Below, one piece after another: positions 39,676 to 41,175 of a DNA stretch of 58,322 nt (positions are counted from its first letter, which is position 1; every line of letters starts with the position of its first letter). This DNA is from a virus. Below the pieces are notes generated by a model that saw nothing but the letters and a program-made list of their open reading frames with translations, was not told the origin of the DNA and did not search any database. Position numbers and translations under genes: made by a program. The stretch is taken from IMG/VR virus record IMGVR_UViG_3300034069_001746; one strand, given 5' to 3'.

Positions 39676-41175
39676 ATGGATTCTGATCTGTTTAGTAGGC
39701 AAAGGAATATGCTTGAATATTTATACAAGTTTTTCTTAGTACCTGGTGTTTTCACCGCCGATCTTATCACTGCCACCAGCTACGTTATTATTTCTTTGTT
39801 TTTGATGCGGCTTGCTTGGCACCGTGATGACATCAAGAAAAGTAAACTGTTTTGGTTTTTCACACTAGCTTTGATGTCAAGAGCCTTTATTCATTGCTTT
39901 ATGGCGTTTAACACCGTTCGCAATCGGTTTGACATTCTGATTCCCACCAAGATTGTGTACGCCGTTTCATCAATTGGTTTGATTTACTTATTGTGGAAAG
40001 TGTTTCCTCAATTAATAAAGCTTCCCACCTTTGATCATTTAGCTACCGTTAACGCTCATCTTGAACAAACCATCGCTGAACTCACTGATGAAAAAGAACA
40101 GCACCTAAAAGTACAAGAAAAGCTGATTCAATCACAAAAGATGGAAGCAGTGGGTCAACTCACTGGTGGTATTGCTCACGATTTTAATAATTTACTTCAA
40201 GCCATTGGTGGTAATCTAGAGTTAATCAGGCGCAATCCTCTAAGTTCCAAGATTGATCGGTGGCTTGGTAACAGTATTGAATCGGTGGCGCGTGCGGCCC
40301 ATCTCACGGGTCAGTTGCTGACCTTCTCACGCGATCAAAAGCTGGACTTAAAAGAGATTTCTTTACTTACCTGTATGACCAATCTTAAAAACATGGTTAA
40401 CCGGGTAATGGGAATTGCCATCACCATTGTCATGGAAGACATTGACGATGTTATCATCTTTGTTGACCCTATTCAGCTAGAACTTGCCTTGCTTAACTTA
40501 TCGCTTAATGCAAGAGATGCCATTGTCGATAAAGGGACAATTACATTTTCAACCCAGTGCGATGATCACCATGTGGAAATCAATGTCACGGACACAGGAC
40601 ATGGTATCCCTGAGCCCATCGCGTCTAAAATCTTTGATCCTTTTTTCACCACCAAAGATATCGGTAAGGGCACTGGATTAGGGTTGAGCATGGTTCACAG
40701 CGTCATGCTTCAATTTGAAGGAGATGTTTACATTAAGCAAACATCCCCCAAAGGAACCACCTTTACTCTTAGTCTTCCTTTGGTAGCAAATCGTCCTGTT
40801 CCTGCCAAACACGATGTTGTTGTCGTCTCCGATCAAAAGCATGTGCTAGTGATTGATGATGAACGAGTGGTACGTGAAATTCTAGAAGACTTTGTTCAAG
40901 AAGCAGGGTACCGGGTAGATACGTGCGAGGATGGTGCTGAGGCATTAGTGTTTCTCAAAACAACCAAGCCTGATTTAGTTCTTTGTGACTTTGCGATGCC
41001 GATGATGACGGGTGATGAAGTGTCACGCGCTATTAAGATGATCTACCCTGATCTTCCTTTAGTGTTTGTTACAGGCTATGCAAAGAGCGACACCATGGGC
41101 GATCACCTGGTGCTAAAGAAACCCTTTGGCGCTGATAAAATCAAAGCTATCATTGAAAAGGCTTTACAACAGTGA
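39676..41175 (+). CDS. Hybrid sensor histidine kinase (3-TM ethylene-receptor-like sensor, HisKA, HATPase, REC)
   Basis: [43 protein letters not shown], REC domain VLVIDDE...CDFAMP...KPF. N-terminus aligns by eye with the ETR1 sensor helices. Confidence 0.92.
   Translation: [499 protein letters not shown]

Follow-up and report, generated by a model that had tools for sequence, protein, structure and literature searches.

A 58,322-nucleotide stretch of viral DNA (IMG/VR record IMGVR_UViG_3300034069_001746, hereafter the window) carries on its plus strand a gene for a hybrid histidine kinase whose N-terminal membrane sensor is of the type found in the plant ethylene receptor ETR1. In the list of open reading frames (ORFs) of the window, the gene lies in an uninterrupted frame at 39676-41175, which could encode up to 499 residues. 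The true start is probably the second ATG, at 39709 (Met12), giving a protein of 488 residues. This start is favored because a site resembling a ribosome-binding site (AAAGGA) lies just 5' of it, because it aligns with the start of the closest relative, the phage protein P0002, and because it agrees with the public gene call (P0001). The first ATG sits within a short upstream motif common to the window gene and this relative, and the conserved upstream motif TTTTATATGGAT occurs once in the window. Scans for promoters and terminators returned nothing above the expectation from shuffled sequence. Residue numbers below refer to the 499-residue form unless the 488-residue form is named.

Domains were called with Pfam at the curated gathering cut-offs, and all four matches lie above them. 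The kinase and its principal features are as follows.

39676-41175, plus strand: hybrid histidine kinase gene (longest ORF, 499 residues; probable true start ATG 39709, 488 residues).
39754-40023, plus strand: three-helix membrane sensor of the ETR1_N type with a degenerate copper/ethylene site, residues 27-116 (PF25487, hydropathy and AlphaFold2 helices).
39760-39762, plus strand: Asp29, equivalent to ETR1 Asp25, kept (alignments and codon check).
39793-39795, plus strand: Ser40, in place of ETR1 Pro36.
39880-39882, plus strand: Arg69 (codon AGA, checked), where ETR1 has the Cu(I) ligand Cys65.
39892-39897, plus strand: His73, equivalent to ETR1 His69 and kept, followed by Cys74 (alignments).
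39949-39951, plus strand: Lys92, equivalent to the ETR1 output residue Lys91, kept (alignments and codon check).
40153-40335, plus strand: HisKA domain (dimerization and histidine phosphotransfer, DHp), residues 160-220, with phospho-acceptor His168 at codon 40177-40179 (Pfam; invariant column).
40465-40782, plus strand: HATPase_c catalytic domain, residues 264-369, with N, G1, F and G2 boxes intact (Pfam; invariant columns).
40843-41154, plus strand: receiver domain (Response_reg), residues 390-493, with Asp394, Asp395, phospho-acceptor Asp438, Thr466 and Lys482 (Pfam; codons checked).

An earlier note, made by inspection of the sequence, had proposed an ethylene-receptor-like sensor with three transmembrane helices, and both parts of that proposal are borne out. 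ETR1_N is matched from position 8 to the end of its 97-position profile, at 44.2 bits where the gathering cut-off is 27 (E = 2.3e-11). Hydropathy reveals three hydrophobic segments, at residues ~24-46, 58-78 and 87-108, and an AlphaFold2 model built with 50 homologues (mean predicted local distance difference test score, pLDDT, of 84) places three N-terminal helices at residues 2-38, 46-70 and 74-103 of the 488-residue form, with pLDDT ~90. A single long helix leads from the sensor to the DHp domain, followed by the folds of the catalytic and receiver domains. The solved structures that were searched included no ETR1 membrane domain with which the model could be compared.

The character of the sensor is best appreciated from the residues that, in ETR1, form the ethylene site. 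Correspondences were taken from an alignment with canonical homologues that is gapless between helix 1 and helix 2, and counts from an alignment of 120 proteins; about 107 bacterial homologues carry the ETR1_N domain. Asp29, Tyr36, Ile39, His73 and Lys92 correspond to Asp25, Tyr32, Ile35, His69 and Lys91 and are kept, Leu66 is a conservative change from Ile62, and the Pro36 and Cys65 columns are occupied by Ser40 and Arg69, respectively, so that the canonical D-Y-I-P-I-C-H-K of the eight sites checked reads D-Y-I-S-L-R-H-K in the window protein. These columns are nearly invariant among the bacterial homologues: Cys is present at the Cys65 column in 106 of them, and Pro at the Pro36 column in 113 of the 120 aligned proteins. 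The spacings from Asp to Arg, Arg to His and His to Lys (40, 4 and 19) are the same as in AzoEtr1 of Azospirillum brasilense (Asp35, Cys75, His79 and Lys98), and the scaffold residues Phe62, Trp107, Pro111 and Pro117 are invariant in the alignment. The arginine is not a sequencing error, because no Cys codon can be reached from its codon by fewer than two base changes and the nearest phage relative has the identical codon.

Reportedly, work by Wang et al. in 2006 forms part of the basis for the list of seven residues required for ethylene binding (Asp25, Tyr32, Ile35, Pro36, Ile62, Cys65 and His69), of which four are kept here, one is conservatively replaced and two are lost. Of the copper-ligand pair Cys65/His69, only the histidine survives. 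Mutation of Cys65 or Asp25 abolishes ethylene binding in Arabidopsis ETR1 (AtETR1), as does mutation of the equivalent Cys in SynEtr1 of Synechocystis (PMC11819568), and Ile35, Pro36 and Ile62 are likewise essential (PMC6586836; PMC8879215). From this pattern we infer that the phage protein would be unable to bind copper or ethylene in the canonical manner. The earlier note had recognized the replacement of Cys65 by Arg, the retention of Asp25, Tyr32, His69 and Lys91, and the Cys that follows the His, all of which the alignment confirms; the loss of Pro36 is an addition to its list.

In the kinase core and the receiver, every catalytic motif is retained. His168, Asn278, the D306-x-G-x-G motif (Gly308 and Gly310), FDPFFTTK and GKGTGLGLS are invariant in the phage and bacterial homologues, and the active site of the receiver, consisting of the acidic pair Asp394/Asp395, the phospho-acceptor Asp438, Thr466 and Lys482, is complete and equally invariant. 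In sequence, the catalytic apparatus needed to autophosphorylate and to move the phosphate intramolecularly to Asp438 is complete.

The kinase gene is truly phage-borne. Near it in the window lie genes for an endolysin, two HNH endonucleases and a helicase, and farther upstream two split RNA-polymerase beta-subunit genes, a baseplate protein and virion proteins; this gene set is that of a phiKZ-like giant phage. Four other metagenomic contigs, 32 to 308 kb long and from different samples, carry five homologues of 46-64% identity, and one of these contigs (IMG/VR UViG_3300049988_000124; 307,821 bp) is rated 100% complete. In these four contigs the gene order is shared: a lysozyme gene lies upstream, an ORF of ~110 codons next to the kinase, and downstream the gene of a helicase or of a protein with an intein. 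The G+C content of the kinase gene is 0.42 against 0.43 for the window, and in the relatives it matches that of the respective phage (0.37 to 0.52), compared with 0.67 for a Sphingomonas homologue. Because of the surrounding phage genes, the conserved position and the phage-like composition, both misassembly and recent capture are excluded, and the view of the earlier note that the kinase is phage-encoded holds; the misassembled host DNA that it had named as a way of refuting this is contradicted by the same observations. GenBank phages include no close relative by DNA and only distant matches to the kinase core by protein. A single-protein scan of IMG/VR returned no match, and an alignment scan of the same resource returned the 308-kb relative only, along with many unrelated hybrid kinases that match the transmitter alone. 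A word search restricted to the sensor found no match besides the kinase itself.

Outside phages, the top full-length matches run to hundreds of proteins that are 35-40% identical to the kinase and have its four domains, and every named one is from the Sphingomonadales (Sphingomonas, Allosphingosinicella, Sphingobium, Rhizorhabdus or Sphingomicrobium). In a tree built on the kinase and receiver (REC) columns, the six phage kinases form one clade, with a Shimodaira-Hasegawa-like approximate likelihood ratio (SH-aLRT) support of 98, within which the window protein and P0002 are sisters (SH-aLRT 100); the phage sequences have deviant composition and a long stem, so that the tree does not fix the exact sister group of their clade. 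The best explanation of these data is that a whole ETR1_N-HisKA-HATPase-REC gene, of a type common in the probable host group, the Sphingomonadales, was taken up by an ancestor of the phage clade, to be passed on vertically at a single genome position and duplicated in one lineage or more. The duplication is seen in the 32-kb contig L001, where two ETR1_N hybrid kinases stand in tandem at 10001-11476 and 11979-13526 with a small ORF between them. The first, HK1 (P0002), has Arg at the Cys65 column, like the window protein, and the second, HK2 (P0003), has all eight canonical site residues together with a PHGYC motif. As a separate observation, the longer form of this motif, PHGYCLLW, stands just before helix 1, is almost invariant in the bacterial homologues (P0007-P0120) and P0003, and is absent from the window protein and P0002; a disulfide or an extra metal contact are guesses as to its role.

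The other three phage copies have lost most of the ethylene sites, and each has done so differently: in the canonical order, P0004 reads H-H-N-A-N-C-R-Q, P0005 N-Y-I-P-N-H-R-K and P0006 H-H-N-A-L-N-S-Q. The strongest quantitative evidence comes from conservation across whole domains. In bacterial pairs with 70-80% identity over kinase and REC, sensor identity is 79-98% (mean 89%), whereas the window protein and P0002 share 72% over kinase and REC and only 44% over the sensor, and all other phage pairs share 52-69% and 15-43%, respectively. Thus, the sensor is better conserved than the kinase in bacteria and the reverse is true of the phage copies, with the sole exception of P0003, which behaves in the bacterial manner (mean identities to bacterial homologues of 61% for the sensor and 44% for kinase and REC). 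The reversal indicates that, in most phage copies, the ethylene site has been freed from the constraint seen in bacteria or subjected to a different one, whereas selection still acts on the kinase and receiver. It also strengthens the proposal of the earlier note that this is a "ligand-blind or re-tuned" receptor, which, as a reading of the sequence, is reasonable.

The kinase is also an orphan. Receiver and kinase profiles built from the family found nothing else in the window or the related loci, and the complete 308-kb relative has no receiver besides that of the kinase and no Hpt domain. The earlier remark that no cognate regulator lies nearby is therefore upheld and extended to a complete related genome. 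One candidate partner in the 308-kb relative, a cREC_REC gene ~10 kb downstream of the kinase (L003 21274-21518), was rejected, since cREC_REC is a cyclic-phosphate processing receiver of NAD/cyclic-nucleotide systems and not part of two-component signaling (PMC7824862). The homologue of Sphingomonas crocodyli is likewise an orphan, with no regulator next to its gene.

Taken together, these features lead us to favor, with rather better than even confidence, the view that the kinase is an auxiliary, host-derived gene of an uncultivated phiKZ-like giant phage, the product of which would be an ethylene-blind, membrane-anchored orphan hybrid kinase acting on a host phosphorelay. In the published model of ETR1, Asp25 lies next to the Cys65/His69 copper site (PMC6586836), and for this reason we propose that, within the membrane, the metal may be replaced by a pairing of Arg69 with Asp29. 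In AtETR1 the activity of the kinase is inhibited by ethylene, and indirect evidence points the same way for SynEtr1 (PMC11819568); because a receptor unable to bind ethylene would escape this inhibition, the phage kinase should sit in the kinase-on state, like the C65Y mutant etr1-1. Autophosphorylation would place a phosphate on His168, to be handed on to Asp438 of the same protein, from which the output would run through a phosphotransfer protein or regulator of the host, since the phage has none. A pathway normally run by the host's own ethylene-receptor-like kinase would in this way be locked or drained. The two bacterial ethylene receptors that have been studied control cell surface, pili, exopolysaccharide and biofilm (PMC11819568), and it is from changes in such properties that the phage could profit.

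Several points weigh against this proposal. The link to a Sphingomonadales host rests on the nearest homologues alone, and the G+C content of the phage (43%) is well below that of the order (~65%). The window is 58 kb of a public record of 127,653 bp, so that a partner, or a second, canonical copy of the kinase, may lie elsewhere in the phage. Finally, the window protein and P0002 share the motif Ser-Arg-x-Phe-Ile-His (which includes His73) together with Asp29 and Lys92, despite a sensor identity of 44%, which argues for a site that is maintained, and possibly re-tuned, rather than one in simple decay.

This last point is the starting point for the most durable of the alternatives, namely that the receptor has been re-tuned, with a pocket of Asp29, Arg69, His73 (perhaps Cys74) and Lys92 whose ligand is now a different one, be it a small molecule, an anion or a metal, and which continues to gate the kinase. 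The arginine codon common to the two genes and the invariant scaffold are in keeping with such a pocket. However, the residue after the His is Leu in P0002, and Cys74 is therefore not a conserved replacement or relocated ligand; the divergent loss of nearly all pocket residues in P0004-P0006 fits relaxation better than a common new ligand; and no candidate ligand is known. We regard re-tuning as possible but doubtful.

A more specific model was put forward in the earlier note, in which the protein, with its CckA-like transmitter, would feed the ChpT-CtrA phosphorelay of the host and so the cell cycle. The probable hosts are Alphaproteobacteria, which have the CckA-ChpT-CtrA pathway; the closest solved transmitter is indeed entry 5IDJ, the DHp-CA part of Caulobacter CckA (E = 7e-36), the top matches include NCBIfam CckA models, and the 21-residue transmitter motif quoted in that note is present in the protein. 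The likeness thus stands at the level of the HisKA/HATPase subfamily, but it goes no further. The CckA models score 221 and 208 bits against cut-offs of 1000 and are exceeded by PRK13557, a generic kinase model; the Pfam scan of the kinase returned no PAS domain; the transmitter type recurs at 33-41% identity across many phyla; and the nearest full-length relatives are the Sphingomonadales ETR1_N kinases. That the protein is a true CckA is ruled out on these grounds, and a CckA mimic is improbable, its connection to ChpT-CtrA being pure speculation.

A still-working copper/ethylene receptor is very improbable. It could call on His73, Asp29 and the neighboring Cys74, and on a Pfam match above the cut-off, but this Cys directly follows the His instead of preceding it by one helical turn, has no counterpart in the closest relative, and would have to make good a Cys loss that abolishes binding in both AtETR1 and SynEtr1, with the proline lost as well. 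The last possibility, host DNA misassembled into a phage contig or an incipient pseudogene, has the fast evolution of the sensor in its favor and hardly survives the intact ORF and full set of catalytic motifs in six phage copies from at least four samples at one position, the phage-like rather than bacterial composition, and the 52-72% identity over kinase and REC among these copies.

The view that we favor, of an ethylene-blind kinase, can be carried further, although what follows is unlikely and offered as speculation: giant phages of leaf- or soil-dwelling Sphingomonadales might keep a captured ethylene-receptor kinase, deaf to ethylene in most of its copies, in order to force the ethylene-responsive surface program of the host, with its exopolysaccharide, pili and biofilm, into a "no ethylene" state during infection. 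If so, the phage would be overriding a plant-to-bacterium hormone signal, and the tandem of L001, with its canonical and Arg-variant copies, would combine sensing and constitutive versions of the same device.

The ORFs that flank the kinase on either side deserve brief description.

41172-41498, plus strand: all-beta ORF of 108 codons of unknown function, whose GTG start and the kinase stop codon overlap; conserved next to the kinase in three related phages.
39421-39654, plus strand: ORF of 77 codons immediately upstream of the kinase, with 61% identity to its positional counterpart in L001; no family match.

The product of the first is predicted by AlphaFold2 to adopt an all-beta fold (pLDDT 93) that has no Foldseek match in the Protein Data Bank (PDB). 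It was considered as an output partner of the kinase, to which it is translationally coupled, but its family, which numbers ~23 cluster representatives at E <= 1e-10, has members in kinase-free phages and prophages as well, beside lysozyme or SLT genes, and it is treated here as a backbone gene. Its profile also matches repeats within giant proteins of 1100-4200 residues, with 18 stretches in P0126. The upstream ORF is conserved only in the closest related phage. Between the endolysin gene and the kinase lie two minus-strand ORFs, 37302-38621 and 38646-39431, each with a hydrophobic stretch near its N terminus; the C-terminal ~70 residues of both match phrog_16458, neither belongs to a Pfam family, and the former is rich in Thr, Gly and Ala. 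Elsewhere in the window, positions 46001-50000 have a G+C content of 0.49-0.51, compared with 0.43 overall, over an ORF of 1208 codons (47294-50920) with no Pfam match. There are no tRNA genes in the window.

Metabolic genes are a familiar part of phage genomes; complete sensor kinases, however, are rare there. The six phage copies of one origin, one with the full copper/ethylene site and five remodeled in different ways, all with an intact kinase, amount to a natural experiment on the ethylene-binding domain, through which the residues needed for signaling might be told apart from those needed for binding. They also bring within reach of experiment the pathway that the widespread ethylene-receptor-like kinases of Sphingomonadales control, as the phage copy should act there too. 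If the proposed role is correct, the hijacking of host two-component signaling would be added to the known repertoire of phiKZ-like giant phages.

Of the known systems with which the phage kinase can be compared, the nearest are the uncharacterized ETR1_N-HisKA-HATPase_c-REC kinases of the Sphingomonadales, such as P0060 of Sphingomonas crocodyli and P0086 of Rhizorhabdus histidinilytica, which have the same architecture and length and are 35-40% identical over the whole protein. They differ in that all eight ethylene sites are kept, the PHGYCLLW motif precedes helix 1, the sensor is the best conserved part, and the genes are chromosomal, with a G+C content of 67%. Arabidopsis ETR1 has a sensor of the same domain family, and replacement of Cys65 in etr1-1 (C65Y) removes its copper/ethylene site, leaving the receptor locked in the signaling state. 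ETR1, however, is a plant protein of the endoplasmic reticulum with a GAF domain that signals through CTR1, whereas the phage protein is a phosphorelay kinase of the bacterial type. Caulobacter CckA (PDB entries 5IDJ and 5IDM) provides the closest solved transmitter and has the H-box AHDFNNLL in common with the phage protein, which differs from it in the sensor, in the missing PAS domain and in falling far short of the CckA family cut-offs.

The proven ethylene receptors AzoEtr1 and SynEtr1 likewise carry a three-helix sensor of the ETR1 type on a histidine kinase, but in them the Cys and the rest of the seven binding residues are all present, ethylene is bound, and a response regulator is encoded next to the receptor gene (PMC11819568); the phage protein, in which Arg and Ser occupy two of these seven positions, has a receiver of its own and no partner gene. 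An Azospirillum locus, L101, was considered as that of AzoEtr1 and rejected, as it encodes a different kinase with another sensor. Full-text literature searches turned up no account of a phage with a sensor kinase of the ETR1 type. Histidine kinases are nevertheless encoded by other viruses, in the form of the agr kinase of the Clostridioides phage phiCDHM1 and the hybrid kinases of the Ectocarpus virus EsV-1 (PMC6324907). These were likewise taken from cellular hosts, and it is in their sensor types and hosts that they differ from the kinase described here.

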